Positions 23,706-64,000 of a stretch of 64,000 nucleotides of DNA are shown one piece after another (position 1 is the stretch's first letter; every line of letters starts with the position of its first letter). Where the stretch lies: positions 744,001 through 808,000 of the forward strand of contig CM114271.1 of assembly GCA_050084515.1 (NCBI GenBank), in the 5' to 3' direction. Source of the DNA: Blasia pusilla (Eukaryota). The position numbers were made by a program, and so were the translations under genes. The notes under the pieces were generated by a model. The model worked only from the letters and a program-made list of their open reading frames with translations. It ran no database searches and was not told the DNA's origin.

Positions 23706-26700
23706 CTAATAACTGGATGAAGCCATATTTTGAGCCCTGAGTCGCTCAAGTCTTTTTACAATAGGAATTGTATCAGAATATCTGCCAATGTTCATCAGCA
23801 ACATGCTTAGCACATCAAGAGCTTCCTCTATATCTGGATGGTCGGGCCCAAACTCCTTGTCTTGTATTTCTATAACCCTGTACATAAGGTGCACAGCCTC
23901 CTCATCTCTTTCTGATTGATGGAGTATAGAAGCCAGTTGGCTGCATGCCTCTCCTGAAACATGGAGAAATAATGGTGTATGTCATCAAACTGCACCTCGG
24001 ATAGAAAACAGAGCAAAGTTCACAGAGGCGAAAGAAAGCCGAAAAATGGTTAACCAAATTAGAAAGCACAGGAACTTTCATGGAGATACAGATCACGACC
24101 TGGACTTGACCGCTCACTTCATTTTATGGGATCATGGATAAATCTCAGAACTCAAGGATGATGAAGACCTGAAGAGATGCCAGGTCTTGGCTATGTCTCT
24201 TTGGGCTTCTTGTTCCAGGTGGTCTAAACCATCATTTGATATTGCCATGTCCAGGGCAACAAGTCATGCTCGCATTAGGTAATCAAGGCTGAAAATTGAA
24301 AGCTAAACAGCTCTTTGACAGGAGTGGTGTGTACAGCACCTACAACACTTTCAGAGGGACAAGTCCATGAAATCCAAATACCCATGTATTCTCCCCACAA
24401 AGATCTGAAGCATTCTCGTGACTTTATGAAGGAGATGCTGATTGGTTCACTTACCCTTTCTACTCCAAGGGGTCTACCAGAACTATGGCTGTTAGCTCTG
24501 TAACCAGGGTCCTCATCCAGCATACCCTGAGAAATCAGAGCAGTGCATTCAGAATCATCAGTGTTGATTGTCTACAAGGTATTATGTCCAGGGCCTACTC
24601 TTGGGAATACAGGATCATGACAAAAGGAAATTCCTTCTCTTAGTCTGATAGCCTTCGAATGCCCGTCGATCATAAAGCACCTCGTTCATTCACCAGTACT
24701 CTACCGTTATTTCGTATCCTGTCCTTGCTTTCCTGCCTCTTGGCCCCTGGGCTGGCCAGAGGTTAAATTAGTTCAATAATAGTACTGGGAAACCTGCCAC
24801 CCTTGACAACGAAGATAAGGTGGCTGTTAAAGTACTGATGTGCTACAAGAATAATAGAGACCGTGACTAGAACTCACCAACACTTATGTGGTGCTTCCCA
24901 AAAGCCTTTTCTCGAATCCGAAGTGATTCACGAGCAAGAGGTTCAGCCTCTGATTCCCTGTCAGGCTGGGAGTGCAATAACGTGGCTAGAAGCTGTAAGA
25001 TAACTGAAACCTGAGGAGCATCCGGGCCCAAGTTTGCTAGCAGAAGCTGTAAACAGCGCCTTAAAGCGGACTCTGCTTTTTGCAACTCTCCCTCCTCAGC
25101 ATACTTCTCTGCCAACTTCTCCAGGTGTTCCACCAGCTGAGAAGAAAAGTACTCCAACGACTTTTTGTCTTTGAGATCTAATCCCTTCAGAACTTCATTC
25201 ATCTCTGTTTCCCTGCAATTGGGGAGACCGGAAACTGACCGAGTGTGAGGTACGCTTGCTAACAAGTAATGTTATCAAAATGTTGACACATGCATAGTTT
25301 GCTTGTGTATCATTGAAATCACCGGGAGTAACAAGTACTAGTATCAGAAAGTTAACTCACGTATCATTGAAATCATCAAAAGTTCTTGGGATATGCAAAA
25401 ACAAACCAAAATAGCACACACCTTCCCAATACATTGAGAAGAGCTGCTAAGTCCATGCGGATAGTCTCTAGAGACTCATCTTCTGCAAAGTCACTGCAGC
25501 TCTCCATAACTTGTAAACCTTTTCTATACCAGTCTACCGCTGCATCAAATTCACCTGGACATTGCAAAAGGTCACGGAAATGGTTTGAGAAGCCAGCTAT
25601 ATATCTGAATTGCAAAAGATCATGGAACGGTCTGAAAGGGAAGTGAGCTCCTCTTGCCTTTGTTCTTGCATCCTCCCACCACCTACTAAGAGAATTCAGT
25701 GTCCCTCAAAGAAAAGATAAGATCCAACAAAAGCAACAACTTACAGAAGGAAATCCAAACCAATGCAAAAAGACACTAGCGAGACCGAATCTTAAAACCA
25801 GGTAAGGAGATGTGCAATAGGGTGTACTCAGATGTAAATCATTAGTCTAGGGACTATGAACAGCATGTCACAAATAAAACTGGGATCACATTCTCAGACC
25901 TCATGATCTCCTGTACCATTAGCATAGATGCTGACCACTACCACCTACAGACATTCTCTCATTGATGTTAAAGAAACAGAGTCCCTTACATAACAATAAT
26001 AATACCAATTTCTACTGAACATCAGAAATATAAAGACATTGGATATTCAGGTGTGAACAGGCCATCTGTATTGACTAGTTCATTATTAGCGATGCAGTGT
26101 GAATCATTCATAGGACGAGTTAATAGACAAGCTAACTACTCTCAGCCATCCACAGGTGGTAGGAGGTTTATCTAGGATGCATTGTGGGAGCAGCTCATTC
26201 TTCTGTAGATGGATCCGCCTCTGTTGGTGGTTGATCAGGGGGGGGAGGATTGGAGTGACATGGACATGGGATGTAATTCTGCCATGTAAATGAAGTGTCT
26301 GATCCGAGACAAAGAGGCATAGCTCTCATAAAAGAGTTGTGCCTGTAGGTGAACCAAAATGATCCATAGCTTAGTCTTGAGGGATCACGACTTACATTTA
26401 GTCCTGCCAACAAGGCGTTGGAATCACTTTTGAAACAGGCCCATTGCATCATCTCCTGTGTGCTCTATGTCTGGTTGTGTTCTTGATCCTCAATCTTCAA
26501 CCCTTACTACGGACTGAGTGAATTCTTACAAAAGACTTGCAGTCCACATAAAAAATGAGCATGAACACAACTTCTGAAAGATTTATTCAAGCACAGAGGA
26601 GAATGAAACACCTTTAGAACTTTTAACTTGGGCAAGTACGCATGCTGCTACTCCATATCTTCCATCAGTATCACCATAGGTCTTTTCAGTCAATGACAGC

Positions 26701-29071
26701 GCCCTGCACATAGGCCAAACAAATTCTATTGAGACTATCTCCCAGCAAAACTTGAAAATTGAATAAGTGAACAGCAACAAGCACATAAAATGGTCTCATG
26801 TATCCAGTGGAATTGTTGTTAATGGTACAACAATTCCAACTTTTCAGGTGAAGTGGAGGCACTGAGAAACCTTCTTATAGCTAATTCTGCCTCCTCGAGC
26901 TTGCCATCTTCCAGCAATGAGCTGCCAAGATGCATAAGAGGTGCAGCTAAATCTTCATCTTCAGTGCCCAATGCTCCCTCTGCATGAGCTAAAATTTGCT
27001 GATATAGCTCAATACTCTTGCTGGTCATATTAAGCTCACTGTAGGTATTCGCAAGTCCTAACATGGTTCTCACCACCGATGGAATATCCTCCTCTGAAAA
27101 ACAAATGGGATTAAAATCAGCCATTGTTCACATGGATACAAATAATAAACTGCAGCTCCTTCGGATGTAGAACATATACAAGGGCAAGGTTCCTGTTCAT
27201 CACTTTATAAACCCAAATTTCCACAGAAATTCTGTTTAATTATAGGGTTTCATTTCTGTGGAAAGTGGAGCCTCCAAACCATGCTCATTTCATCCAGAGA
27301 CCTACGCCTCAGAGTGACAATTGTCTACTTGACAGCACTTATTGCAATATGGGATTCGAACTTTCTTTCCTCATACCTTGAGCACCCTTTTTAATTCTAA
27401 GGCTCCGAGTGAACAATGGAAGAGCATCTTTGGGTTTGCCCATTTTCAAATACATGGACGCTAGGTGCTCCAATATGTTGCCAACAAGAACCTCTGAATC
27501 TGACATCAGTTCCAAGAGCTGCTTCGCCTGCAACAGTCATATGGAGTGAGTCCCCACATGGAGTCAGCCTTGGTTCCAAAGAGTGGTAATACACCAGTCA
27601 TACTGACTCATTACAAATTTCATTACACAGCCCCATCAACCTCACTTCGATAAGACTTGTAGAACTTTGTACGTTGCTACCATCTCTGCCTCATAGAAAT
27701 CTCCCCCACAATCATCCAAAAATATGCATAGAAACTCACCATAGCAGTGAGGGTAAGAAATTGACCTGATCAATGAGCATCTCTGCTGATTCCTGATCCC
27801 CCAAGTTCATATATAAATGAGCTAATATATCCAGCATAGCTGCTTGTTCCACTCCAAACACACCACCATCCAACTGCTCTAATACAGCCTCATAATTGCC
27901 CTCAATAATCTCCCGTGCTGAGTCCGGATCACCTCTGCCTATCATCTTCTCCACCTCAGCTAAAAGTCCACGAAAGTCATCATTGCCACCATACATGTCC
28001 ATCAACAGGTCCTCCACATCCCCGAGGCCTTCCTCGAGCTGTTTCACAATTTTATTTGAAGAAGGGTTCCTGGATTGAAAGACGACTTAATTCCTGTCAG
28101 ATATGAGTAGAGGTGTTATGGTCATGCTCGCAATTTCCATGAGCGGCTCCTGCGGTCGCGACAGACCCAGGCCACCATGTTCTAGCCTGTGATGTACACT
28201 ACCATACCTGGATTCAAGTTGCAATTCTTCAAAAGGAAAGAGATATGATGTTGACTGCTTGCAAGTTAAGCACCCTGTGTTTTCTGGAATACGAAGAAGC
28301 TAACGGTTTGAAACTATGCTCTCGACGCGTGAAATTGGATAAAAACAACTGTAGTTCAGAGCCTTGATGGCAGTACTGCAGGATGGAGTTCCAAAGCCTC
28401 AAACTCGTCGGTAATGACTCAGAAGATGACAGAACAATTAAGAAGAGAAGATGTGTCAATTACGTACCTCATCTTATCAAACAGTTTCTCAACAACGTCA
28501 CTATCTTCCAACCCAACTGCAGCTGCAAATCTCTTCATGAGCTCCTCTTCGTCATCTTTATCATATTCCTCACTTTCTTCGTCGTCAATGTCATCCTCGT
28601 CGTCGCCATTATCGTCCGTGCCTGCCAAAGTGCTGTACTCCCCGGTCTTGGGGTCGAGGACTTCCACATCGATATATCCATCAGAGCCTACACCTCTGCA
28701 GATTTGTGGTATAAGGAGCACATCATACAAACTCCAATCACTCGCATTGAACTTCTTTGTAAAGTAGCTCAAATTCCTTTCCACTGAATTCACTGTTCGG
28801 TCCACAAGTAGCAAAGAAACGGCAAAAATCACAAACCAATTTTGCAGCATTCTTACTTGGCTTTGACGGGGCTCCGTTTCCATTCATGCAGCTTTCCCCC
28901 GTCCTTGTACCTCAAAGGCACATGCGAAGACGTCAGCGAAGTCCATGGATTCACTTTCCATGTTGGAAACCGACAGCAGGACCGGCCACATCCCACCGCT
29001 GAACAACTCTGGATAACCACTGTGCCCGGTGCAGCAATTCCAACTGCAGCAAACCCCAGTGACACAGCCAT
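23706..29071 (-). CDS. Plastid TPR protein (kinesin-light-chain/nephrocystin-3-type repeats), At5g53080/WTG1-like, ~642 aa, 9 exons
   Basis: Exons 29071-28857, 28695-28468, 28069-27766, 27527-27377, 27093-26871, 26703-26612, 25554-25422, 25212-24878, 23953-23706 are in frame (1929 nt). Transit-peptide-like start and an acidic tract. NYEAVLEQLDGGVFGVEQAAMLDILA, RMDLAALL, LRIREKAFG and IQDKEFGP match my recollection of At5g53080; orthology is not verified. Confidence 0.9.
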
Positions 29072-38729: not shown

Positions 38730-41700
38730 TCACTGGAACAGTTGCAGAGGGAAAGAATCAATCATGAGCCAAAAATGCATCGCTCCAGGTGTCCAAGCTA
38801 CATGTATAACTTTGAGTGCATGACAAGCTAAAAGACTCATGATAAGAAGTAATCTTGAATGAGATAAGACAACTTTGAAAGCCAAGGGATCAAAACACCA
38901 AGCACCAGACAATCATTAAACAAAATATTTTGTACAAACAAGAGGCACTGCAACAATACAGCATTCCCTGCTGTGCTTAGAAAACAAAAGATTATTGACG
39001 AACCTGATCAGAAGGGAGAGGTGAGCTAGTATTTGCTGTCTGCTTAAGCTCTGTTGGTTTATCTGCTCCACAGTTCCTGCGATTGCACTTTGTTCTGAAA
39101 GGATAGTTAACATTGCCACAGGCCTCACACGTCCAGCTCCCATCTGGTGGTGGACCCTCTGGAAAATATCCAATGATTTACAATTAGAATAACCGTTGAA
39201 AATGACAAAATGTGATAGGAAATGCAGGAATGAGGCATCCCCACGGGAATGGAGAAATTCAATGTGTTCAACCATCCAGAAATATGTTTCACAACTATGC
39301 ATTTTGATCAAACTTACGTGAGGCTGCAGGGGCTCGAGCTGTAGGGCCATTTCCATACCGGTTGGCCTGAAGAAAAAGAAAAAAGGCTCAACATTTGAGA
39401 GATTCCAGGTGGGACAAGTATGAACAGTTTAAAGTAGGGAGTGAGAAATCCTGTTCACATATCCTGTGATTCAATTCATTAACCTTCTATTTTCCAAGGT
39501 CAACAAAAAGTATTCATATGACAGGCAGACAGAGACTCTACTCATAAGTAGTGCTGGTTGTAGCCTGGCGACTATAGACCCCAGCCAGACTGAACAGATC
39601 CTAGAAATGAAATGAATAAGATCTGCACAGACTGGTAAAAAGTCAAACTGCTCAGCTCTGAACACCTGTGAGGGCAACTGACATGATGAAAATTTTGAAA
39701 AAGGACAGAAAGTAAGCAACTTACTGTCTCTGTAGGCTTTGGTGCACCACACTTTCGCATATTACAGGTGGTTCTAAAGGCAAAGTTTGTATTTCCACAT
39801 TTTGGACACACCCAGTCACCTTCAGAGAAACCATCTGGACCTGGTTGGAATGAGACAGACGACCCCAAATTCAGTGCTTACATATTCGTACCAGCAGCCC
39901 CACTTTGAACCAGATTTACCACAATTGAGTTCGCAGGCCAATTTTCAAACACAGGCTAACATGTACCCACCTCCTCTGCGTTTCCTGGAGCCATTCTCTT
40001 CACCATACATTACAGGTCCTCCTCTAGGTCCTGCCATCTATAGAATCATCACAGAACCATCAATATGCCATATCATACAACAGGATACTCAATGCAACCA
40101 ATTCCCACAGGCACCCAAGCTTCGAGACACAGTTTGTTTACCGGTGGGGCTCGACCCATGCTCATATTCATTCCATATCCATCCATAACCGGTCCAGTGC
40201 CATAGCCAGGACCTGAGAAACAAAAGAAGGAACCTCTGAAACTCTTTGAAAGGGTGTAGACTACTTATCCAACTCACCAATAGCAGAAAGTGGATAATGG
40301 ACGAGTCATGCCAATGTCAAAAGTAACATAACAGCTCTATTACTTCAGAAATCTTTGGATAAAAATCATAACGGTAGAGAAGAAGCACAAAAAACCAATT
40401 CCACAATATGAAAGTAGTCAATGACTTACCTCCACCAATAACTGCTCCTGGAGGTCCATAGGATGCTGCCATAGGCATTGGTTGATAAGGTTGTACTGTA
40501 TTGACTGATGCCCCATAATCATATGGAACAGTAGATGCCACAGCTTGGGGCTGAATGGGCATTGGTGTACCATAATTTGCCGGTAAAGCCAGTGGAAGAG
40601 AAGGGGGTGCACCTGGCCCTCCCATATACATAGGAGCAGGGGCTTGTTCGTACATAGTGGGGGCAACCATGGGCCCCCCAATAGCCCTTTGTTCACCCAT
40701 GTAAGCCTGAACAAGAAGAGACAATAAGCCCTTTAGAAAATCATGGTAATCAAGTTTTGCAGGCGTTGGATCAGCTAACAAAATGCACTACCAACCATAC
40801 TCAGTGCACTGACACTGGCATTTCAGAAACTGTCAACAAACATCAACCTTCTTTCTTGATTGGGGTTGAAATAACGTGACAGCTACTAGACAGCCCGCAG
40901 CACAAGCTTCTTTCAAAGCTGTGCGAAGCAAGTCAGATTAGAAATACCAAAAGTAGGACTGACAGTACCTGTGTACCCTCAGCTGGCTTTGACGCTCCAC
41001 ATTTCCGCATGTTACATGTAGTCCTAAATGCAAAATTCACATTTCCACATTGTGGACAAGTCCAGTCTCCTTCTCCACGGACAGCTGGAGTTCCATTACA
41101 CATCGAAGATTCACAGGAGATTTAAGTAGGAAACAACTCCAGGTTCCTCCTGCATGAAACCTAAAATGATGTATCTACATAGACAGACAGACAAGTTCTA
41201 AACTCATCTCGAGACAACTCTTACATGATAAAATTCACAAGCATTTGGTACACAGCTAAAAAAACCCTCCCACGAGGATCAAACAAGCAAGAAACCCATA
41301 CCAAGCCCCTGTATCATGGAAATTTCATAACGAGCCATGAAGAGTCCTTCATGATACAATAACAGCGAATTGAAAGAGATACAAAGAGAGGAATGTATCG
41401 ATTCCACTCCAAAACCCACCATCCGTCCTTGCACGCTTCGGTCCAGGCTGCCCTCGAAAATCCGCCTGTACACATTTCGTTGAAATTATAAACAGCCAAC
41501 ATTATGAACAGGACAGTTTTCACGTCATTCCCTATACTTCTCAAAGTAAACATGCCATCGAGAATCCGCCTGTGCACATTTCGTTGAAGTTATAACATTG
41601 TGTACAGGGCATATTTCACCTCATTACCTATACTCCTCAAAGTAAACATGAGGAGAGCTTACGTGACGGGTCATGTCCACCACGGTATTCTGTGGGGCAG

Positions 41701-43593: not shown

Positions 43594-45950
43594 TTAATGT
43601 TGTCCAAAAACCTGAAAGTCGGCGGGATTTTCTTCTCCCGGAATTCGCGGTTGTGAAAGGGTCTTAACTCTAGACAGCATAGCATACATAAGCCCAAGGG
43701 AAAATGTAGATTTAACAACTAAAATGCACTTGCCATGTATTATAAGTCCTTGGATTTTATGCCTAGTCATTGCACAATCAAGGCTCAATAAAATGGATCC
43801 AAAATGATCCACTTTTGCTATGACTTCACCAGTGTGCATACTACTCCACATATTTTTCAAAGCATGCTTTTTTAATATTTCTCCTATATCCTCCAAGCTG
43901 ATAATCAGCCTCTTACACACACACACACTCATGAACATACGTCCACATGGGTGAGCGTGATGACATTGTCTCAGATTCTATCATACAAATTATGTGGCGT
44001 GATAGCACATTGTAAAAAAACTTATTATATTGATGTAGGGAATGGTATTCAATATATTGCACAACTCTATCTATGGTGAATATATTCCAAATTTCCCAAG
44101 GAATCGGCATCAAAAAAGTTGACTCCTACTTCTGGGGTGTGACTTCACCAGTTCATGTTTTTCAAAGTATTTGGAACATGTTGAATCAAACCTGCAAGCC
44201 AGATGGTGGAAGTACAACATAGTGGGATGTATGAATAGCACAGAGGACTTGCGATATAGGCTTGTGTACATGTGCGGAGGACTTGAGTCCACATAGGCGA
44301 GAGATTGGGAACAGTATATAATTGGGATATGTAAGGCTATTATTCTTGCCTCTATAGATCGAGGACATTATCTTATTTAACACTGTACCTGATATCATAC
44401 CCAAACAAACGTCATCAAATTCCTCGAGGCCGAGGGCCTTTGATGATTTTGTATCAATATTTAGTGCCCTTGTAGGCTGTGATTTCAGTTCATACTTTAT
44501 AAGGTAAAGGGACTAATCGATGTTTGTTACGTGTTGTATGTTCATGTGCGTTCCCCAAAATAAAAGTACAACTAGGTGGTATGGAACAACATTTCTATGA
44601 TCTATCTCAGGCTTATAATACTTCCATCACATAGTCATGGGATCAATAGATGGACGCATGTCCATGTTTATATCAGTAGGGAATGTCAACTTACAGTGTG
44701 GGGTCTGGGACCTAGTTCACTTTATCATACAGACTCCTTGTTTACATGTGTGAATTTTTCTTCACAACATAGGTATGCAAAAAAGTGTCAATAAAGGATG
44801 TTGTAACGTCTAGAGTAGGACGTAGGTTGTGGCATATGGCAACAGATCTTAGATGTAATCAAATCAATGTCTTCATATTTTATCCATAAAATCATGTGGC
44901 AATGTAAACTTCCCCTTCCCCATAGTTCATATCGATAATTAACTATATGCCCAGGTATCTTAGAACCCCTAAGTATGTGGTAATGAAGGCATGCTCGTAA
45001 CCGAACAAGGAACAACATGCCACGCTCGATTGGGCCGTCCCTCCAAGTAACGTTGGGATTCATTTTGCGTAACACTTGCTCAATGTCATCTCTTTCGACC
45101 CACCTAGTGTCAGACAGTTTTTTAGACATAAGCATAACAAAGAAGTGCAGCACTCCCCATTTCCTTACCATGGCCCTAAGATTGTGCAAGTGGCGACGAT
45201 GCCATGTTGGGCTCCCTTTATAAGTAACATAGTGCTTACATAATCTACCATACAATTCCCCATTAGATATATCTAGATTGTCCCTCCTCAAATTCTCCAA
45301 ATCCTGGTTTAGTATGCAAACCCTTGTTGATGAGGCAAGTGCAATAGATTTCCTTAATTGATGCATCAATAGTGGATATGGCTTATGGAGGATAAATGTA
45401 GTAAATAATTGTCTTGTGCGATGGTGCATGTATTCACCAAGAGATCCACTTCCAAAGTAATGACCACGTAAGTATGGGAATTAATAAGAATGGAAAGATC
45501 CCATTTCAATGATAAGGCGGCTATCTGATAAAACACCACAGCTATTACTAAGAAAGTTATGACGTAAGTGGCTATTTTGCCTCATATACAGTCACCCACT
45601 TTTGAATATGTCTGATGACATTCTCTGCTTCATAGGAAGAGTATATTGCACATCCTAGAGTATGTTAAGTTTGAAACTGTACGGATGAAAGCTCATACTA
45701 TCGATCATACTACCCTTTTTTGTGATGCTTAAATGATTCTCTGAACAGACTCAAGGGATCAAATGACTAATCTTGTGTTCGGACTTGGAAGTTCAATTAG
45801 GGGTGGGTAGTCCCTATAGATTGGATTTACCTTTAAATTTACAGCTATAACTTTTCTAAATAGGGTGCAAAGAAATTCCTTATTATTTTCATTGCCCTCC
45901 TCGCCACCCCAAGAGATCAATGGATTGTCCAATAGAGATGTCACACGAAA
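43594..45950 (-). mobile_element. Decayed Helitron Rep/helicase (HUH endonuclease plus PIF1-type helicase)
   Basis: Rep motifs GSPTW..NLRAMVRKWGVLHFFVML and YELWGRGSLHCHMILW in 44788-45429. Helicase motifs AMTRHKIQG and FSLGLMYAMLSRVK in 43594-43938. The reading frame is fragmented. Confidence 0.85.
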
Positions 45951-50887: not shown

Positions 50888-52700
50888 AACGATGGCCGCC
50901 CCCAACAACGTGCTTCACACATGCTCCTCATGAGCATCAACAATAGGAGTCGTCGTACTTGCTTCTCCCATCGCCCTCCGTGCCTGCACACCGACAACAT
51001 CACCAACTCTCCAGGAACTTTGATCAGGACCCATCGATGGTGTCCTCATTGCCTCGGACAACGTGAAAGACTGAGGAAGCCTAGTATGTTTCCTAGGTTC
51101 CCCTCATTGTGGATCCAACTCTGCGGTTGCACCATACATCACAACTACGGTTGCCTCCATCTGGGCAACCCCGCACATCCAACCAGGATTCTCCAGATTT
51201 ATGGCTGCTCCATATGATGTCGATGCCACGGATCCGGCATCGGGTAACCTCAATGCCATAACGGCAATCTCCTCCTGTAGCTGTTGTATTTGAGCAGCCA
51301 TCCCAGGCTCACGTCCGGCGTCTCCCTCGGCGCATCTAGGTGGTGGTACTCCACCTCCTCCACGGGCAGCTCCACCACCGTGTCGGGCAAGTCCAGCTCC
51401 TCGTCCTCCAACGGGACCACTTGGTGCACGATCTCTAGGCCCACTCGGACCGGATACTCGCTCTGGTGCCCTCTCTGGCCCTCGGTTTGGACGTAACTCA
51501 GGACATAAACTGAAACACCTGGCGCGTGTATGACCATACCTGTGACAATAGGCACACTGATAACCTCCTGGTGCAACACCATCTCCTCCTCCATGCAGAG
51601 GCACACGTCCATGACCGTGACGAGTGCAATCGCGTTGATGATGGGCTCCACGACATGACCAACAAGTAATAGTAGGCGGCTGCTGCTGAGCCGCATATGA
51701 AGGTGCAGGTCTCTATGGCACGGCCCCCCGATATCCTCCCTCAGCTTGTGGTGCCACAGTTGACCTATCTCGAGTCACGTTCGCAGGTAGTGCGCAGCAA
51801 TCGTGGATCGCTCTCGCCTTGAGAACCCATGGTGGCTACGCTCTCCTACGCCATGTTGCGCTCAATGTTCTCAACGGTCCTAAAAACATCTCTCAACGTA
51901 GGGGGGGTGTTCATATGAAGCACCCCCTCCCGCACCCGTGTCCTAGGGTCCGATCCAGCATCGTGTACCATGACTGGATAGCCCGAGCCTCTGTCAACCC
52001 CTGAGTGACGTTGATCAACCGGGCGCAAGTGAGTGTAAGCCTCATGCAAACTCTCACCCGGGCGCCTCTGGACATCATGGATGCTCTGCAACTTCTCCGT
52101 TCGTACCCCCTGGTAGCTCGCCCTCAACTCAGCAAAGAACTCAACCACGGGGTTGAACTTGGGACGAACACGACTAGACGGTGCAATTGCTCCCGTGCGA
52201 GTGACCCCTCCTAAAATGTCACTAGTGGAAGAGGAAGTAGCCTCTCCTAACTCCTCCTCCTCATTTGGGAACGGCTCCGTCCATGACACATAATGTGGGT
52301 TATAGTAGTGCCTCTATGCCTCGATCTCATGTGCATATCTGAGAGAACTCATGGTAATCATCAATGGGCGCACCCTCTAAATGCTGGAACATACCGTTCC
52401 ATGCTATAAACGGGTTGAACTCTCTAGAGTTCCTGGCCCGTTGGGAGTCGCACCAACTCCTAAACTCTGCTATGAAATCGTGCCTACTGCACCTGAAAAC
52501 CTACGCGGTCCTCTACCCCGATCGTCCATCTCGTACGCCCAAGTGGTAGGACCACTCACAATGTGTGGCGATGTGCTCACAAACTCCTCTACACGCTCCC
52601 CTCATCTGAAGACGACACAAAAGGAGATCGAGGTGGTCTCTCATGTGGAGACCCTCGAAACCTCACACCACTCCGGGTAAACCCTCTAGAGCTACTCTCA
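50888..52700 (-). pseudogene. Retrotransposon gag relic with a CCHC zinc knuckle
   Basis: FFAELRASYQG..QRRPGESLHEAYTHL (gag-like, 51846-52289) and CAYCHRYGHTRARC (51104-51604). The frames are broken and the relic abuts the CACTA end. Confidence 0.8.
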
Positions 52701-54399
52701 AGTCCACTACCGTGCCTCTCAAAATCGTGAAAGGAGGCCATGATGGCCCTCGTGCCCCTCTCACATAATCACTCTCAACCTCGCGAGTAATCCCTCAATC
52801 ACTCATCCCAAACATGCGGCACTCGATCTATACTCTCCCTCCCCGAGACGTGTAACGTGCGGCAGCAAGCGGCGTGGTGCGGAAAATTGACTAGGCTATC
52901 ATCTTCTCGACAACCTACCCTCAACTCTGGATATCCCACACAGGTCTATGTCCCTTAAACCACATACATAAATGATGCTCTCAGCATCCACACAACCCAA
53001 TATCCCCAAATAAACTACCCAAATCCGAGAATCCCTCACGCATCCAGGGTAAAGGACCAGAATGGATAACCTGAACACATGTCGATGTCGCTCCTCAACA
53101 ACTGCAAATCTCGATCCCAACTTGGTCGTGGAGACAACTCCTCCAATCAGCAAGTCATACTCCTCCCGTACTGACGGTGCTCAAAACTCCTCGATGGACA
53201 GTGCGGTTCCAATGAAACGGTGCGGCATTGTAGGCGGTACAAAATGGCTACGAATGGCACGGCCCTCGATGGTGGGATGCGGCACTTGGCGGCATACCCT
53301 CCTCAATCATAAATAAACCCACACTCTGCTCCACAATGACGATGCGGCTCCGCGATCGAGACCGTACGTTGCGGCCACAAGGGGCACAGCGCGGCAATCG
53401 GCGGCGCGTTGCGGCTACGGGCATCACGGCACGGTACTCGATCGTCGTCAAGCGGCTACCAATAACAACATAGTAGCATGAAATCAAAACTCAAACACCA
53501 AAACCGGAGGTCATTTGCCATGACTGGTTGACGATGAAACTTCGATGACGGTGGCGGGCAAAAAAAACAAACGTTTGTTAATGCAGAGAATCAATGAACA
53601 TCGTGGAAGACCCTCCACTCCGTAATTGTGGCAATGGCAACCAAAGGCTGGAAAACAGCCGAATGCGGCTCTGAGCAACGCTGGGCAACGGCAACGGCCG
53701 ATGGTGGCCAGTGGACCGTGGACCGTTGCACGTTGATGATCACGGTTGACCATTGATGGTGACGATGGACCGTTGATGGTGATGGTTGACCATCAACGAT
53801 GACAATTGACCGATGATTTTGTCTATGATGGCGACGGCCGCCGCCGGCGTGGCGGCTGGTTTAGGGTTTGAACAATTTAACCCTAAAAATTGCCTAACAA
53901 TGGCAGTTTTGCAAGATTGACCATAACTTTTTACTCGCAACTCCAAATTACGCATTATTTTTGCACAACGTGCACAACTTCATGATCTACAACAATGTCA
54001 AAAAATATTTGGAATTGGACATTCAAGTAAAAACTGACAGGGATTGTCGTAAAGCCCAATGTCTCTTTCTCCTACACAAAATTTGGTAGCGCTTCCGCGC
54101 TGATTTCTCCCAACCAAAATGTAAAACCTGTAAAAATACATATATGCAAGCTGCATGATGCTCCCAAGAGCACCAACATGGGGCAACCCGCATCCATAAT
54201 CAATCCCTATCAGAAATTGGGCAACGCTTCCGTGCGCCACTCTTCCACACAAAAAATCGGCAAATGCAAAGATCAATCAAAGCAACCCTTGCTCCGGTGA
54301 GCACTCCCATGAACCGCTGAACGGGAACACGGTCCCCAACCTGCAAAAACATCGAGTGACCAGCGAGCTCCCCCATGAAGCTTTCTCACTCTCTCATTC

Positions 54400-55870
54400 T
54401 CTCTTTGTAAAGTAAGATCCAATCTCTCTCACAACACCATAGTTCTCACATGTGTACACTCTCACATGTCTCTCTCAATGTCAAACTAAACCCACTCTCC
54501 TAATGAGAGACTTGGGTTACATACACAAGGCAAGCAAGACCATAGCTCCGCCGCCTCATGCCAAAAGTTCAACAAAGAGAGAATGAGCTCTCAAGCTCTC
54601 TCTCCTTGAGGTATACCCCTCCCCTCTCCCAAGCTCTTTCCATGGTAACCTATTCTCCCAAGTCACCTCCTTGGCTCTTGACCTGATGTAGGAGGTCAAG
54701 GGCCACTTACCAACAATAGAAAGTTGATCATATACTCAAAATGGTACTTACTTAAAATAGTAAGTTTCTCAATATGGTTCCAAATGAGCCGAAACCAAGG
54801 GAAAACCTGCTCTCTCAGGTTTCCTAAGGCCTTAGCATGTCATCCTCAACCTTCTGAGTCTGTCTTCCACTACTCACGAAGGCGCTCTACTAGATCTCAC
54901 CAATCTATCCTAAAAGATGTGACACTATACATATGAGACTCTCAAACTCGCGAAGAATAGATCATGGCCAAATTACTCCCTCAAGAGGTATAATCCACTC
55001 TCATTGGAAGAGCAAGTAAGCTCAATGCCATCCATTCAAGAGTGACAAGAGGAACTCGAGAACTAAAGTTCAAGGTGAAGAACCCTTGAAAGTCCCTCCT
55101 CTTTATATACTCATAAGGGATCCATAAGAGTACAAAATAAGGCCAATCTTATCTTGTGTCGTATGACTTCCTCTCAAGGCTTAGATAATCCCATTTTTTA
55201 CATAAGTAGATTACTTTTTTCCTCCTAAAATATCCTCATATATCTATTTCATATCCTCCCAACTATCCTAACTATTATAGTCTTGACTTCTTCACTAACC
55301 AAAAATACTTTAGTTTTATTTTTGATAGTACATCGAACCACAATTTTTCTTTTATTACCTCTTTTCCTAGAGTTGGGCCCGCATAAATGAGGCACCATTA
55401 AGAGATTTAAACATTAAATTCTATTTTTCTAAGTTAATTATTTAATACTTATAAAAATTCTCTCTAACATTGATAAGCGTGAAATATACATGTTTGATTA
55501 TTTTACTACACGACGATGTTCTGTACAATAAAGTATCTAATTAAATAAAATATCCTTAACCATAAATGGTTATCTAGCTTTGCAATCAAGCATCAATAGG
55601 ACGTGGCGAGATATAAGCACCACCATATGAGACACTATTTAAAATCAAAGATGTAAGTGATGTCCAAATGTCCCTTATGTCCTTCATCTTGCATAAAAGT
55701 GGGCCTTTCCATAAAAATGGGGTGTATGGATCTTAAAGCCAAGGGATTAGGGGATATCACCACCCGTATGTCACGCTCTCTCATACCCCCAATTAGAGCG
55801 TCTTAAAAATGGACCCTAGGATCTTACGTCCTAATCTATAATTTGCTATACAGTCAAAATAGGGGGTATC
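54400..55870 (-). mobile_element. LTR of a minus-strand retrotransposon, boundaries approximate
   Basis: 54414-54922 is repeated at 59714-60224. Minus-strand TATATAAAG at ~55100-55110. The ggggtatca end at ~55870 is followed by a pyrimidine tract and a weak chromodomain-like relic at 56070-56150. Confidence 0.55.
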
Positions 55871-56712
55871 AAAAATCTCCCTATCCGAGAGTTCTTGGTC
55901 ACCCACACTTGTCTCAACTGAGTTTTCTCAGCTCCAAAACGGATAGCTCTTGAGCTTCTCGTTTTGGTATTCCCAGAAGGCTTCAAAGTCCCTGCTCCTT
56001 GCTAGTTTCTACTCATAAATATGTGGGTGTGCTGGCTTGACATATTTCCAGATCTTTTAATATGTCTCTCTATAAAATTGTTACATCCTCTTGTTCCATA
56101 AAAAAGCAAGCTAGTGTTCGGTCTAATATCGTCACCCGGGTTTTATTTGTTGAGGATGATCTCTGACACCCCCTAATCCTTCCGCAAGTGTGGAAGGATG
56201 AGGGGGGTGTCAAAGATTCACCTCTTACAGTCAAACGTCCAAGTCCATGTTGTACCACCAATAACATAATCTCCAACTGGGCATGCATTGGAGCCACAAC
56301 AATAGCATGCGTTTGGTGCACATAATCATTCTTCCTATTGGAGTACTTCTAGTTACTCCCAACACTCAGGCTACAACAATTCCAAACAAGCATGAAACAA
56401 AACAGATATATATCTCAGAGTTTTTTTTTCCACAAGGTTTAAAGTTTCTCAATTGTAACTAACATAAACACATCCAAATACCAAAAACTTACCTTCACTC
56501 TGCAAACATCATCCTAAGTGACATGTCGGAGTTACCTGATGACAATTTTCCCCAATTCATCATACCTAATGATGCATAGTTAAGGTATGGTGAAAATTTG
56601 GCCCTTGAACAATAACACAAGGAGAGTAGTATAACTAATCATGGAATGAGCCATCTTATTGATGAGCAAAAAACATGGGCACATGCCTTTTGCGATAGGA
56701 AAAAAATAGCAA

Positions 56713-56963
56713 TCAATATTATTAAAAGAGGACGGGGTTTAGGAAACCCCTCCTCTGGTATCGACACATAGGCTTTTTCAAGCCTTCCCGTGTCGACACG
56801 TGGACAAGAAGACTTAATTAAGATGCACGGGTGAACAAACACGTAAGTAATTACAATAAAGTAGTATTTATTAATTCATATTCTTCCTCTCTAATAGCAC
56901 AATATTTTTAGTTCGTATCGGTTGGGAGGTTCTTCACCTATGTGGAGCACGGGCACCAACTAG
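56713..56963 (+). mobile_element. Short non-autonomous Helitron (251 bp)
   Basis: A|TCAATATTATTAAAAG 5' end. 3' end is gtggagcacgggcaccaaCTAG|T, with no TSD. Confidence 0.75.
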
Positions 56964-59581
56964 TTGCATATGGTAAGTACATCATATCATTCTATATTTC
57001 TTTATATTTTCCTCACGATCCAATCTTCCTAGTATATTCACATGCCAAATACTACTCCACTTTCTGCAACTTATCTATTGCATGCATGGTTTTGTTATTA
57101 ACACGACAGACGTCGAAAAGGAAGCTCTGATCCACAATGACATTGACTATAAGAATCAGGAGTTAACAAGGGATGCAACCAACAAGCAATGTTCTCTACT
57201 CACAAGAGGCATACGCCTTCAAAAATTCCGTGAGCTTAGGGTCATAATGCGCATGCCGCTTACTATGCTTATGAAGCTATCCTGTGCTAAAGGTATTCAT
57301 CTACTTTCATGCATGAAATCTTCCAGAGAGAGTGATGACATCAAGTCCTCTCCAAATACCCCTATTTATGGCAACTCCAATCATAGCACATACTCTCGTA
57401 GTAGAAGTGGTCGGAGTGGTCTAGTTCCTTCCCATCCAGACTATAGGGTGAGACATGGAACTTCAATCTCATCTCCCATCCACCTCAATAACAAAAATCC
57501 TACATATGAGTTAATGCAACTTCCAGAATCATCGAATGAGAAGAAGTATCACTCTTTTTTAGCTGTGTATGCCATTTTTTATGCCCTTGCACTATAACTT
57601 GTGCACTATTTAAGTCCATTTTTTGCTACATATCTCATAAGTAACTATGTCAAAAATCAGAATGCTAAAGTAGTTTCCTTTTGTTGATAATGAAGATCTG
57701 ATGCAATGCTCTTTCCATCAAATGCATTAATGTTATACCATGTTCCCGTTCTATTACCATTGATGTGATGTTGGCCTTGATTTGAGCCAGTATTTTGTGG
57801 TGGCATTTTCACTCCTAGAGGTGTCTGCTTATTTCAATGTTGATACATTTTTGAGCTTGGAGCTGCGTGGTTAACACTAAAGCTACTAGACATTGATATT
57901 GACTTATCTAATGTATCTTTTTGGATTTCATCCTCCATAGGAATGTAAATGTTGGTTAAAGTGTGTTTGTAGATGTCGCATAGCAATTACCTAAAATTGA
58001 TCATCTGCTACATGCAATTATGTTGTATTTGCGGCTTAGTTTTGCGAAGTTTTTCAATAGGACATTATCTCCATGTCCTTATAGCCAACTTGTAACTTTA
58101 GGTCTCATATATTCTTTAATTTCATTTTCCTATATCATCATTATGCAGATGGATGTATATGCTTTCATGATAATTTGGTTGTTTGCAAATACCTTTTGTC
58201 AATTTTCTATTTTTCACCATAAACTTTAAATGACGAGGAGTCTTTTATAGGATTTTATATTCTTTCCAATCCTGGATACCTTAGATACCTACTTGGGCAT
58301 CTCAATCTACATATACTACTCTTGACTACCTCATACTTCAACTTCTCTCAATGTTATTTGTCCATTGTAGTTGCTTTGGCATAGTTTTCCACCTATGTTA
58401 ATCATACCCGACGTGGGTCCAAATGCATGTTCATCACCACAGTTGCATACATATTACATTATTGGCTTTGCACAACATTATTCAAGTTCATATCCTTTGA
58501 TTTGTGTATCCCGATTGCAATTTCGTCCCTTCCACTTACTAGATTTGAAAGTTCCATAGTGCATGAAATCCAAGAGCGTTGCAACAACATTGCTATGCTT
58601 TCAAAACATAGGAGGAGGCATTTTATAGCGGCGAAATATCATTGTGAAGTGTAATTTCCTCCACCAAGAAATGCAACTTGCAAAAATGCCTTAGTCCTAA
58701 TGCATGTCTATGATGCAACAGTTGCCAATATAAAGGCTCCGAGTTCAAAGTACGATGAATCTGATCGTCAAGTCTCCCTACTCAATGACGTCGCAACCTA
58801 TCTAGAGGAGGATATTCTAATGAATAATGTATAGATTAAAGACTAAACAGACACTTTGGCTACTACAAAATAGGAATTCCTTGCATTTGTTGCAACTATG
58901 TGACCCATCATTGGAAGACATTTTTGGATTCAACAAGTTTGTAAAAGCTATGATAATAATATTAAACATGTCAAATGTAGCAAGTCTAACTTGAAAGGGA
59001 ATTCCCAATCTTGTGACAAGCCATCCCTCATCGACATCTATCCTTTGTGGTATTTTATACATGCAAAATTTTTTGTCTACCCATGTCAATCTTCATTTTG
59101 TTACACGGCAACATCTACTCACCTCCTATCAAGAATAACTCTTTTTTGATTAATTACCACTTCTTTATTTTCAACAGAAATGAGTTTCAAAGCGTGCAAT
59201 ATGTAAATGCTTTTTAGATAGTGCATACTATTTCTATTCTCTCAATTTTCACTGTTGGAATTTACATTCCATATGTCATATTTCCAACATTTCCATTGTT
59301 TCAATTTGGCTATACTTCGGAGTTTTATAGAAATCACTCGCCATGCTACCTTGGAGGTCTTCATACTCTTACATTATAGACCATAATAAGTAGTTTATTA
59401 TTAAACACCAGTTGCTCTTTTAGTTCTTTTGTTTCGTGCCTCAACCAAATCATAAGAGGGCTATCTGTAAAATTGGTTGCGTCCTCCATGCCCATTTACT
59501 AACTCTAAATTGCCAAAACCATTCCCACAATTTTAGCCTGCCACATATCTCTCATATCCAATTTCTAAGCATGGGCTCCTA

Positions 59582-60224
59582 TGTCGTGCGCATACACATC
59601 GCTACATAATATACATCGTTGTCACCGAACACACACACAAACACGCACGATCTCATGCTAACTCATGACATCCAAACAACGAGACAAGAAATACCAAAAT
59701 ATCTCCAATAAAATAAGATCCAATCTCTTTCACAACACCATAGTTCTCACATGTGTACACTCTCACATGTCTCTCTCAATATCAAACCAAACCCACTCTC
59801 CTAATGAGAGGCTTGGATAAGACACTCAAGGTAAGCAAGACCATAGCTCCGCCGCCTCAAGCCAAGAGGTTCAACAAAGAAAGAATGAGCTCTCAAACTC
59901 TCTCTCCTTGAGGTATACCCCTTCCCTCTCCCAAACTCGCTCCTCGATAACCTATGCTCACAAGTCACGTCCTTGGCTCTTGATCTGCTGTAGCAAGTCA
60001 AGGGCCACTTCCCAAAGTGAAAAGTCAACTCTAAAAAAATGGAAACTTACCAAAAATAATCAGTTTCTCTATATGGCTCCAAATGAGCTGAAACGGAGGA
60101 AAAACTTGCTCTCTCAAGTTTCCCAGAACCTCAACAAGTCATCCTTAACCTCTTGAGCCTGTCCTCCTCTACTCGTGAAGGAGCTCTACCAGATCTCTCC
60201 GATCTATCCTAAAAAGTCGTGACA
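59582..60224 (-). mobile_element. Chimeric LTR-like unit: ~126 bp copy of the 60227 LTR end fused to ~510 bp related to 54414-54922
   Basis: 59582-59708 is about equal to 60227-60353; 59714-60224 is about equal to 54414-54922; the unit is bounded by TG...CA. Confidence 0.7.
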
Positions 60225-60534
60225 ATTGTCATGCGCATACACATCGCTACATAACATACATCGTTGTCACCGAACACACACACAAACATGCATGATCCCA
60301 TGCTAACTCATGGCATCCAAACAACGAGACAAGAAGTACCAAAATATCTCCAATCTTCCTCCTAGTTGGTGGTTAGGTCCCTCTAACTCCAGATAACCAT
60401 CTATCCCTACCTACCATGACATACATCTCTCGGACGCTAAGTGCAAGAAATTTGGGTGCTCATGTGGCCCCATTGTTAGTCGCCTTCTTGTCATCCATGT
60501 CACAGACACAAGTCGGAATGTAGAACTACCTACT

Positions 60535-60675
60535 CTATATATATTTGGGACACATCAATCGTCCATGAGAAACCCTAGTGAGAGGTGGTGTCAAGCATGC
60601 CATATGCTATCCTCTCAAACATCCATCACAGACTAGCATAGTGGTTGCACCACGGGCAGAACCACACAACATACA
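60535..60675 (-). pseudogene. PHD finger at the integrase C-terminus
   Basis: CMLCGSARGATTMLVCDGCLRG*HMACLTPPLTRVSHGRLMCPKY shows the C4-H-C3 spacing, with one in-frame TAG (probably TGG originally) and the last Cys changed to Tyr. Confidence 0.88.
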
Positions 60676-63279
60676 TCGCAAGTCTGTAGGAACTACTGCT
60701 AAGTTGAGATCAAATGTATCATCAATGTTCGGAAGGTGACACGGCACACAGTTATGCACATGGTCCTTCCAAATCATACGATCGCATCCCTCCAATAAAA
60801 GAACACCTGATGGCAAAATCTCACGCACTCTCAAGATGGTGCGACCTACAGTCACATCCAATGTCGTGGGTGCCGTCTGCTGCAAGTAGATATAGTCTCC
60901 CTGATGAAAGGTTTGGATAGTAGGTCAATAACCGCCCCCCCAAATAGTCGCAACCTCACGTTGTAACCTGGTCTGTCAACACCTCACGTTGTAACCTGGT
61001 CTGTCAACACCTCAACTGCTGCACTGTAATGACTCTACACTCGATCTAGGAAGGTATATGCTACTCCCTCACTCGCTTTGTGAGGAAATGCAACCAACTC
61101 TATCCACTTCAAGAAGTGCTCGACCATCACCAACAAATAACGATTATGGCGCTCTGTCAAAGGCAAAGGTCTTGCAAAATCCAAACTCCATCTATAACCT
61201 AAATCCATGATTGGAAGTGGATGCAACTGTGAAGTCGGTGCTCGAACTCGATCACATACCTCGCATCTGGCAACAAATTGTTGAATGTCAATATGCATAT
61301 CTCGCCACCAATACTGAATTTGGAGCAAGATGTACTTCCGCTTCACTCCAAAATGACCCAGATCCTCATGGGCATGACGCACCAAACGTGCTCTCTACGG
61401 AGGATGAGACACTACACGCACTCTACCATCCTCCCATACTCGCAACACATGTGTCCCCTCTCACCATAACCGTCTGGCTCACTGTAGGATCCGATCCTGC
61501 TCTCTAGCACCCATTGTGCTCGTGACGCTGCCAATACGCAGGTAGTCCAAGACCAATCCATCGTCGTGAACGTCTCGTCCATCTGTCATCTCCTCACCGA
61601 CATTTGCATCTAAGGACTCTCCATCAAACCTCGCCATCGAAGTCTCAAAAATCTGGCTCTCCATAGCCAACAAGCCCAAATAGGCTCACTCATGCCATCC
61701 TTGCACCCACTCCTCATCACTCTCACCATACCAACGAGCTCCAGTCGCATCTTGCTAACTCGAGCATGGGTTACGGCTCAAACCATCTGCATCTTGGTTG
61801 AGCGTCCCAGATCTATGCATCATCTGGAAGTCATACTCGTGCAACAAAAGAGCCCACCTCGCAAGCTTCCATGTAAGCTTGTCGGACTCCATCAACCACC
61901 TAAGTGGATGATGATTAGTAATGATGGTAAAGTGATTTCCGAATAGATAACATCTGAAATGTGCAACAACCCACACTGTAGCCAAGCACTCACCCTCATA
62001 CGAGCTATACTTTGCCTCTGTAGAGTTGTTCGAGCCACTAGCATAAGCCACCACAAACTCTCTACCATCATCTTCATGCTGGGTGAGCATGGCTTGAAGC
62101 CCCAACATGCTCCAATCGGTATGCAACTAGAAAGGACGCCCCCTGATCCGTCTCCTCAATATGGGCGCAAACATCAATCTATCCTTGAGCATCTGAAATG
62201 CTCTCTCTTGTTCATCCCCCCAGTGCCACCCTTGATCCACCTTGGTCAGCAAGGTCAGCGGCTTTGCAATCAAGCTAAAATCCTTGACGTACCGTCGATA
62301 GAAGTTCGCCAATCCCGTGAATGCACGAACTCGACTCACATCTGTATGGCGTGGAATGCGTGGAATGCGTGAAATAGCCTCTGCCTTTATCTGTTGCACA
62401 CCAAGGCCCCCTAGGTATATCGTATGACCCACGTACTCAATCTGGTTGTAGAAGAACTTGCACTTGCGTGGATGTAGCTTCAGCCCATGTAATTGCAATC
62501 GTCAAAACATCTCCTCTAGATGTTTCTCATGCTCCTCAACCGTGGCGCTAAAGACTATGATATCATCAATATAATACCTAGCAAAATCCACACCTGCCAA
62601 GATCCTATCCATGACCCTCTGAAACTCAGCCAGGGCGTTCTTTAACCTAAATGGTAAGAATCGCCATAGGTACAAGCAATCCTTCCCGTGAGGATCGATG
62701 CCCCAAAATGCCGTCTTTTGCCTTTCCTCCAATTTGATAGGCAATTGATGGTATCCGGCTTGAAGATATAATGAAGTGAAGACCTTTGCATGCTTGTAGG
62801 ATCGTCGGAAGAGCGGTGTATCACTCGACAACTCAATGCGGATCCCTGGACCCTTCAGTGTACCAAAATCATGCATACTTAATGCAAAACATCTCCTATA
62901 ACTCCTAAGGAACTAGTGTATCCGGCGCCGCTCTCCTCTTGTCAACTTAGGGCCAATATCTGGCTCCCAAGTCTCCATCGTGACTATGGTAGGACTCTCC
63001 GGTGCGGATGTCAATGGTTGTTATGGTGCAACCCCGTCTCGGATAATAGAACTCTTATCTCCACGCGCAGTACCCGAAACCATGCTTGATGCTGTGGCTA
63101 TCATCTCCTGGCGTATCTGCAAAACATCCGAAGAAGTCCAAGGGTACCTCTCCTGATCACCCCTGGTGTGTCGATCTCCTCGAGTCTTGCCCCCGGCCAT
63201 TGCCTCAACTATCTCGGTAGGCATGGGCTCACCAACGCAACAGTTGTGATCTATCTCATCCTCAAACGACCTTGCTCAA

Positions 63280-64000
63280 CTACTCCTAAGTTGAGAATCC
63301 ATGTTAAGCAGTTCATGTCCATCGCCTGATCCAAGACATGATGTCATGATGCCTTTGATAGTGACGGTACTTCCATCACTCCTAGGGTAATTCCATCGCT
63401 TGCTCTCGCTCATCGGCGTTGGGCTCCACCAACCTCTGTACTTGGTCATCCCAAACTAAGCCAGGTCCGGCCTCCTTGTATGCAAAGGAAGCAAGAAAAC
63501 TCAAAAATGTGGGAATGGTTTCCCGTGGCATGCCAATCTTGTTGACCACAGTCAACGATGGTCGATCAACGTGCCTCATTGCCTGTGATCGACGACCTGG
63601 ATCCACAATAGAATCCACCAAAAAATCTAAGGGGCGCTCCACTCTTGCATATGCCCTCCGAAATACCTCGTGTGATACCAAGTTTGTCCACCAAAGACAC
63701 GGACGATATGCTCGTGAACCCATACTCGCCGCATCCAACAAAACTGCCGGGCCGATCCATGCGCGCACCTGATGTGCATTCGTCACCACACAGGACCTCG
63801 AATCATCCAAAATTGGTACATTCTCCAGAATGTATGCTCGAGGACGAGATTGATGCTCTTGCAAGTGTTGCAAGATCCACATCATCTCCCAAAACAACAT
63901 GGACCGAGAGTCAGCTAATCCGCTACCTCGTCCAGCACTTGACAGGCCCTAACATGGCCAACCAGCAATGACCACGACTATGGCCCCTACCAGTTCCAAG
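63280..64000 (-). pseudogene. C5 cytosine-specific DNA methyltransferase domain encoded inside the retrotransposon
   Basis: Motif IV VVIAGWPC*GLSSAGRGSGLADSRSMLFW (stop at 63951-63949), motif VI YILENV, motif VIII DAASMGSRAYRPCLWWTNL, motif IX-like EPNADEREQAM. After a frameshift comes motif X-like VLDQAMDMNCLTWI. Motif I would lie beyond 64000. Confidence 0.9.

Follow-up and report, generated by a model that had tools for sequence, protein, structure and literature searches.

The end of a 64,000-nt stretch of the Blasia pusilla genome, called the window below and used for all coordinates, contains the 3' two-thirds of one degenerate Ty3/Gypsy-type retrotransposon. The element is read on the minus strand from the window end (64000 to 59582). 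In this direction it carries a DNMT3-type C5 cytosine DNA methyltransferase (DNMT) domain, reverse transcriptase (RT), RNase H, integrase and a PHD finger, and it ends in a set of terminal repeats (Table 1). The succession of RT, RNase H and integrase, the last of the DDE type with an H2C2 zinc domain, is the Pol order of Ty3/Gypsy elements. A first-pass annotation of the window had placed these three domains downstream of the DNMT on the same strand, and the Pfam matches bear this out. The gag and protease of this copy would lie beyond the window end; a gag with CCHC knuckles is visible in a second, truncated copy of the family on the same strand.

Table 1. Positions of the features of the two family copies in the window
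Feature	Positions	Strand	Evidence
DNMT3-type C5 cytosine methyltransferase domain, motifs IV-X	63263..64000	-	translation, PF00145, alignment to relatives
DNMT-RT linker, no known family matched	62976..63262	-	alignment to relatives
RT and RNase H, single frame	61755..62975	-	Pfam RVT_1 3e-11, RT_RNaseH 1.1e-29
Integrase, H2C2 zinc domain (61394-61239) and rve core	60867..61754	-	Integrase_H2C2 2.3e-14, rve 0.022
Integrase C-terminal extension including PHD finger (60675-60550)	60544..60990	-	PF00628 match, L068 alignment
Purine-rich tract, candidate polypurine tract, just upstream of first short repeat	60355..60380	-	sequence
Short repeat, internal copy, ends ...GACA; 2-nt spacer 60226-60225 after it	60227..60354	-	94.5% identical to 59582-59709
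Long repeat, 3' copy, begins TGTCAC	59710..60224	-	84.6% identical to 54408-54924
Short repeat, terminal copy; element 3' end (...GACA) at 59582	59582..59709	-	repeat comparison, DNA reads
Lone long repeat, 5' end of second, truncated family copy	54408..54924	-	repeat comparison, DNA reads
Gag-like region of second copy, CCHC knuckles within 51712-51104	51026..52684	-	blastx, open reading frames

Domain content and decay of the window copy

Translation of 63999-63385 yields GWPC, AYILENVP and RPCLWWTN. Motif IV (GWPC, with the catalytic Pro-Cys) lies at 63963-63952 and is directly followed by an in-frame TAG (63949-63951), where relatives carry Q. Motif VI (ENV) is intact, and motif VIII reads RPC against RPR in the family, with one arginine changed. 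A frame change occurs near 63394-63385, beyond which the motif IX/X region resumes and aligns with relatives. Motifs I-III lie beyond base 64000; motif I (FxGxG, SAM binding) reads LFGGISTG in full-domain relatives. The GWPC, ENV, RxxLWWTN and motif IX/X-like stretches that the first-pass annotation reported upstream of RT on the same strand were thus all recovered by translation and family alignment. It had also described the DNMT as intronless, which holds, since the match is collinear with protein relatives and gap-free.

The DNMT fragment shares 46-62% identity with its relatives over about 200 aa. A phmmer search with it against 1.84 billion representative proteins returned 1006 matches at E≤1e-3, 354 at E≤1e-10 and 22 at E≤1e-30. 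Many of the matched proteins are 1000-3200 residues long, and many are Gypsy polyproteins. As judged from these sequence matches, the similarity is far beyond chance.

Between the end of the DNMT match (63263) and the start of the RT match (62975) lies a linker that shares a short HPW..WD-like stretch with relatives. The integrase region was aligned to residues 892-1509 of the near-intact metagenome locus L068, and the C-terminal extension shows 54% identity to residues 1615-1762 of the same locus. The PHD finger within this extension matches PF00628 at E 1.2e-7 and 32 bits, against a cut-off of 24, with one stop read as X. No tyrosine recombinase domain was found in the open reading frames (ORFs) of the window or in L068, and no chromodomain was found in the element.

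The first-pass annotation called this copy dead, and its lesions agree. Stops at 62913-62915, 62502-62504 and 62127-62129 interrupt the RT-RNase H frame, and about 80 RT residues are absent near 62790 relative to L068. The integrase carries stops, has a short tandem duplication near 61010-60960 and, compared with L068, is missing about 105 residues from its C-terminal part. Another in-frame stop (60609-60607) falls within the PHD finger, and further stops are found in the DNMT downstream of its frame change. In the linker, the window differs by one base in length at 63224 from most reads of other copies.

Roughly one read in 100 of a single DNA run was compared with positions 50900-64000, at a likeness of at least 88%. 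Only 132 mapped reads are at least 99% alike to the window element, indicating that this copy is old and diverged. Where the window and other copies differ, the window has T or A in place of C or G at 253 and 219 sites, and the reverse holds at 79 and 82 sites. Decay by C-to-T change fits, because the T/A-for-C/G differences dominate. The CpG observed/expected ratio is 0.69 for the element and 0.58 for the window; the element is no lower, and the ratio points to nothing specific. The window copy is a dead, ordinary relic, which matters only as a pointer to its family.

Place and type of the methyltransferase in the Gypsy polyprotein

Pfam architectures were scanned for 30 of the 150 listed phmmer matches. 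In 15 of the 30, RT and/or RNase H is followed by DNMT and then integrase, usually with a PHD finger, whereas in three (P0020, P0026 and P0035) the DNMT precedes RT or follows gag/protease. A PHD finger was found in 14 of the scanned relatives. P0026 is one ORF of 2188 aa encoding CCHC, DNMT, RT, RNase H and integrase. The Closterium protein P0035 has the order DNMT-RT-RNase H-integrase, and P0020, also from Closterium, has CCHC-protease-DNMT. L068 encodes gag, then protease-DNMT and RT-RNase H-integrase-PHD in the same frame with one stop between them. Marchantia polymorpha P0206 contains DNMT, RT and RNase H collinear with the window, to which it is 56% identical across the DNMT and 53% identical across 550 RT-RNase H columns. 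Among the 45 proteins with both domains, the DNMT stands before RT in seven and after RT in 38. The family therefore has two domain orders: the DNMT precedes RT in streptophytes, and it lies between RNase H and integrase in another clade, of which the one named member is from Scenedesmus. Among the relatives, P0022 has a Tudor domain (PF21743) after the integrase, and P0138 has a G-patch between DNMT and integrase.

Trees of the DNMT and of RT-RNase H were built with 38 rows each, after eight near-duplicates had been dropped and the window added. Both show the same arrangement, in which P0026 pairs with Closterium and L068 is sister to the pair of Marchantia P0206 and the window. The group with the DNMT first forms a single split in both trees, with support of 99 and 100 by the Shimodaira-Hasegawa-like approximate likelihood ratio test (SH-aLRT). 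The closest RT-RNase H relative of the window is from Marchantia polymorpha, with 67% identity over 325 columns. Since the two trees are congruent, the DNMT and RT have travelled together; this congruence does not give the date of the capture.

The position of the DNMT could in principle be accidental, with a fragment of a host DNMT3 gene or a processed retrocopy lying beside an unrelated Gypsy fragment. The window copy is broken, its linker matches no known family, and the DNMT bins are shallower in DNA reads than the RT bins, as such an accident would allow. The same order nevertheless recurs in the single ORF of P0026, in L068, in Marchantia P0206 and in Closterium P0035, the linker itself is common to relatives, and the two trees agree. 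Chance juxtaposition is already contradicted by these comparisons, and we consider it extremely improbable. The DNMT is accordingly assigned, from sequence comparison, to the Gypsy element rather than to a host gene or retrocopy. The first-pass annotation had likewise put it in the pol region, a view that P0026, L068, P0206 and the congruent trees uphold.

The type of the enzyme was examined with relatives in place of the broken window copy. A profile of six relatives with the full domain, compared with PDB, matched DNMT3A at 2.4e-15, with DNMT3B and DNMT3C close behind, followed by DRM (2e-8), M.HaeIII (7e-5) and M.HhaI (3e-4). An AlphaFold model of relative P0200, based on a 30-row alignment, has a mean pLDDT (predicted local distance difference test) of 90.7. 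In a fold search with this model, DNMT3A, DNMT3B and DNMT3C alone are among the top matches listed, with a target-normalised TM (template modelling) score of about 0.84 at about 22% identity. The family alignment shows the motif order I-IV-VI-VIII-IX-X, which is unrearranged, unlike that of DRM. By the sequence profile and the predicted fold of the relatives, the element DNMT is of DNMT3 type and nearer to DNMT3 than to DRM or bacterial enzymes. It has the catalytic fold and motif set in common with host DNMT3 and DRM, and its best solved matches are DNMT3A/B/C. It differs from the host enzymes in its low identity to DNMT3A, in the absence of PWWP/ADD or other host companion domains, and in its location in a transposon polyprotein.

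Split terminal repeats, copy number and transcription

The repeats of the family do not form two equal long terminal repeats (LTRs). A long repeat stands at the 5' end, and the 3' end has the succession short, two nucleotides (NN), long, short. The first-pass annotation had closed the element at 60227 with a plain LTR; repeat comparison moves the end to 59582 and replaces the plain LTR with the repeat units of Table 1. The element ends are a short inverted repeat of integrase type, because the long repeat starts with TGTCAC and the short repeat ends with GACA. The ends TGTCAYG...CAYGACA are found in the window and in the metagenome elements L052 (5' end mutated to TA) and L065. These two are complete, about 9.1 kb long, and agree with the window in layout and end motifs; in each, 2 nt separate the short from the long repeat at the internal junction, and 4-bp target duplications flank the element. 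The sequence context of the candidate polypurine tract is also conserved in L052 and L065.

The second family copy in the window (51026-54924) consists of a lone 5' long repeat, a leader of about 1.7 kb and a gag with two CCHC knuckles. Its long repeat has no short repeat on either side, and the gag-like region follows on the minus strand. By blastx, this region matches N-terminal residues 9-500 of DNMT-bearing Marchantia polymorpha proteins. Matches to family proteins stop at 51026, and high DNA read depth persists to 50900, the edge of the mapped stretch. At the other edge of the window, a segment at 94-141 on the plus strand aligns over 46-48 nt (87-89%) with the last part of the short repeat and is inverted relative to the copies in 59582-60354. 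This may be the tail of a third family copy entering from before the window.

Many copies represented in the DNA reads have a short-NN-long junction, with NN variable, and many have a long-short junction. At 59582, 933 reads run into unlike and mutually different sequence, and at 54924, 502 reads run into diverse sequence. Taken as one unit, the long and short repeats (60224-59582) resemble a single LTR of 643 bp with TG at its start and CA at its end, and recombinant LTR arrays are common in plants; the repeats might then be ordinary LTRs disturbed by rearrangement, for example by an LTR duplication, tandem or partial, at the 3' end. We find this explanation improbable, as the 5' copy is without a short repeat in the second element of the window, in L052 and in L065, and the 4-bp duplications bracket the long...short unit rather than two equal LTRs. 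Moreover, the hundreds of reads with the short-NN-long junction come from other copies, and passages of PMC5890265 describe a Klebsormidium element with the same layout.

In total, 68,117 of 12,434,590 DNA records fell on 50900-64000. The two element pieces were covered at a depth of about 600-2600, compared with about 0.5 for the unique stretch 55707-59202, which suggests roughly 10^3 family copies, with a wide error. In three RNA runs, the depth was 13-60 with the first mate on the plus strand and 0-9 on the minus strand. As the first mates lie on the plus strand, the RNA is from the sense (minus) strand. The RNA depth in the DNMT bin 63136-63572 was about 14.

Two other features were seen in the RNA reads. 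Joints at 61837/61993 and 62009/62853, which skip 155 and 843 bases of RT-RNase H, were found only in RNA reads (5-13 per run). They were rejected as introns for their non-canonical ends on the minus strand, and may stem from deleted copies. At both edges of the 54-nt segment 55361-55414, each of the three runs has 80-178 reads that end in the same unaligned sequence; the RNA depth there is 19-25 and the DNA depth about 60. The segment resembles a short spliced exon belonging to a repeated minus-strand unit that is expressed.

Among metagenome contigs, 316 pattern matches were obtained, of which 120 were confirmed and the best 80 kept as loci. A stop-free, ungapped DNMT match was present in five of the 80. 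In seven of ten pairs of stop-free copies, codon positions 1 and 2 are 64-77% identical and position 3 is 33-50% identical. Purifying selection between lineages over long periods, with neutral decay of each copy once inserted, would be expected to leave this pattern.

The remainder of the window contains unrelated features. A multi-exon host gene for a choline-transporter-like protein (PF04515) was identified at 11836-15033 on the plus strand, with exons 49-63% identical to a Calypogeia fissa protein; in an exon search, a single protein was matched, from Calypogeia fissa with 62% identity. TPR repeats (TPR_12, nephrocystin-3-like) at 24870-27127 on the minus strand occupy two frames and are probably host-gene exons. 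Also on the minus strand are a RanBP2-type zinc finger (PF00641, 1.9e-8; 39575-39877) and a Helitron helicase-like N-terminal domain (PF14214, 5e-8; 44791-45480). A Tf2-1-type integrase SH3 domain (PF24626, 1.4e-12) at 702-1088 on the plus strand belongs to a different Gypsy family and has no match to the DNMT family proteins. The plus-strand open frame of 637 aa at 8425-10335 is GC-rich (55%), has long frames in several other phases and no Pfam match, and could represent low-complexity sequence or an ORF of an unknown repeat. Neither ARAGORN nor Rfam at gathering thresholds gave a hit in the window, and megablast of the window against a phage collection gave no match.

Distribution in the green lineage and relation to known systems

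Relatives of the DNMT fragment are found in several bryophytes, with taxon names as given by the source databases. The named relatives with 46-62% identity are from Marchantia polymorpha (14 gene models), M. paleacea, Riccia sorocarpa, Calypogeia fissa, Sphagnum troendelagicum, three Closterium strains and Scenedesmus, the last with the other architecture. A 39-row DNMT tree was rooted on this other architecture. Closterium branches first, apart from the bryophyte group (support 98), and the window falls inside a group of 27 rows (support 94) whose named members are all bryophytes. Going by the sequences alone, an algal streptophyte host such as a zygnematophyte would be improbable for the window, the identical architecture in Closterium and the modest exon identity to Calypogeia fissa notwithstanding. 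The DNMTs of Sphagnum, a moss, sit on short branches within the liverwort sequences, and the branching of the element thus does not just mirror that of its hosts. Old subfamilies or transfer could account for this nesting, and we draw no conclusion on horizontal transfer. The family is an old green-lineage family that occurs in bryophytes according to the source names, and it is not rare; it sits unremarked in public protein sets.

Collectively, we read the window copy, with a probability of about 0.9, as a degenerate Ty3/Gypsy-type element of this family, whose Pol carries a DNMT3-type DNMT between protease and RT and a PHD finger after the integrase, and whose terminal repeats are split. Several points weigh against this reading. 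The fragment lacks the residue after the catalytic Cys and has one motif VIII arginine altered. The PF00145 search proposed in the first-pass annotation did return a match (E 1.4e-4), but for the fragment alone the 21.8 bits fall just under the curated cut-off of 22, where relatives with the full domain score 27-51 bits (for example, 46.1 for P0026 and 46.2 for L068 ORF2). The DNMT-first order with both domains is found in just five sequences, and the trees come from quick searches with SH-aLRT support only. Summed over both directions, the DNA depth is 336 and 179 in the DNMT bins, 2-7 times below that of the RT bins (about 790-1270), a gap that could reflect divergence, an edge effect of the mapped stretch or a subfamily without the DNMT. 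Recent copies give no clear sign of constraint, with ratios of nonsynonymous to synonymous substitution (dN/dS) of 0.57 and 0.64 in just the two of ten pairs that were usable. Finally, the comparison with the Klebsormidium element is one of layout, and the replication scheme, the role of the PHD finger and the methylation target are inferred.

Split repeats combined with a DDE integrase and target duplications pose a replication puzzle. Intact copies would be transcribed on the sense strand, and Gag and Pol would be made, with Pol cut by the protease. The internal short-NN-long junction, in which two element ends are joined, probably templates the regrowth of complete ends during reverse transcription. 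The DDE integrase would then insert the linear DNA with a 4-bp duplication, probably guided to a histone H3 state by the PHD finger. De novo methylation by the DNMT3 domain would most plausibly fall on the new cDNA or the neighbourhood of the insertion. According to PMC5890265, retrotransposon DNMTs methylate CG de novo, and self-methylation of cDNA has been proposed.

A wider and rather doubtful proposal is that a DNMT3-Gypsy lineage that combines DIRS-like split repeats with a DDE integrase and a PHD reader was carried from streptophyte algae to bryophytes and is still active in land plants, where its enzyme adds transposon-encoded de novo methylation. If this were true, the element enzyme would feed the plant methylome, for example by marking its own cDNA or insertion sites. 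The family is present in Marchantia, Riccia, Calypogeia and Sphagnum, and it is abundant and transcribed in the organism of the window. Marchantia polymorpha is genetically tractable, so why a transposon carries its usual silencer becomes directly testable, as does the effect of the enzyme on the plant methylome.

Chromoviruses are Ty3/Gypsy elements with a chromodomain after the integrase. The window element resembles them in having a chromatin reader fused to the integrase C-terminus and the same RT-RNase H-integrase order. It differs from them in that the reader is a PHD finger, with Tudor or G-patch in some relatives, in the additional DNMT, and in the split repeats that replace LTRs.

DNMT-encoding retrotransposons are recorded in print from dinoflagellates and one charophyte alga. 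No land-plant report of DNMT-carrying retrotransposons was found in the full-text literature, with about 1.7 million PMC articles and all supplements outside the scope of the search, and a 2025 survey repeats only the 2018 finding, for "streptophytes". SymbioDIRS-Dnmt3 of Symbiodinium has, as described there, a DNMT3-type domain in a retrotransposon and the same split-repeat arrangement (PMC5890265). It is a DIRS element with a tyrosine recombinase, whereas the window element has a DDE (rve) integrase with an H2C2 zinc domain.

The closest known system is the Gypsy-Dnmt3 of Klebsormidium nitens, KnitGypsy-Dnmt3 (de Mendoza et al., 2018; PMC5890265). The PHD finger has 0 mentions in the passages of that paper searched, and none of the 30 proteins checked by name, nor any named match of the searches, is from Klebsormidium. 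DIRS elements are described there as 'A-coding region-B-A-B', and this is said to hold for the Klebsormidium Gypsy-Dnmt3 too. The link to Klebsormidium drawn in the first-pass annotation gains from this, as the published arrangement is common to the window and the two complete relatives. By its description, KnitGypsy-Dnmt3 has a Gypsy-type Pol ORF with an intronless, unrearranged DNMT3-type domain, a streptophyte host, and repeats in the order long-coding-short-long-short, as in the window, L052 and L065, the comparison being one of descriptions rather than sequences. One difference lies in the hosts, as the relatives of the window element are in bryophytes and Closterium.

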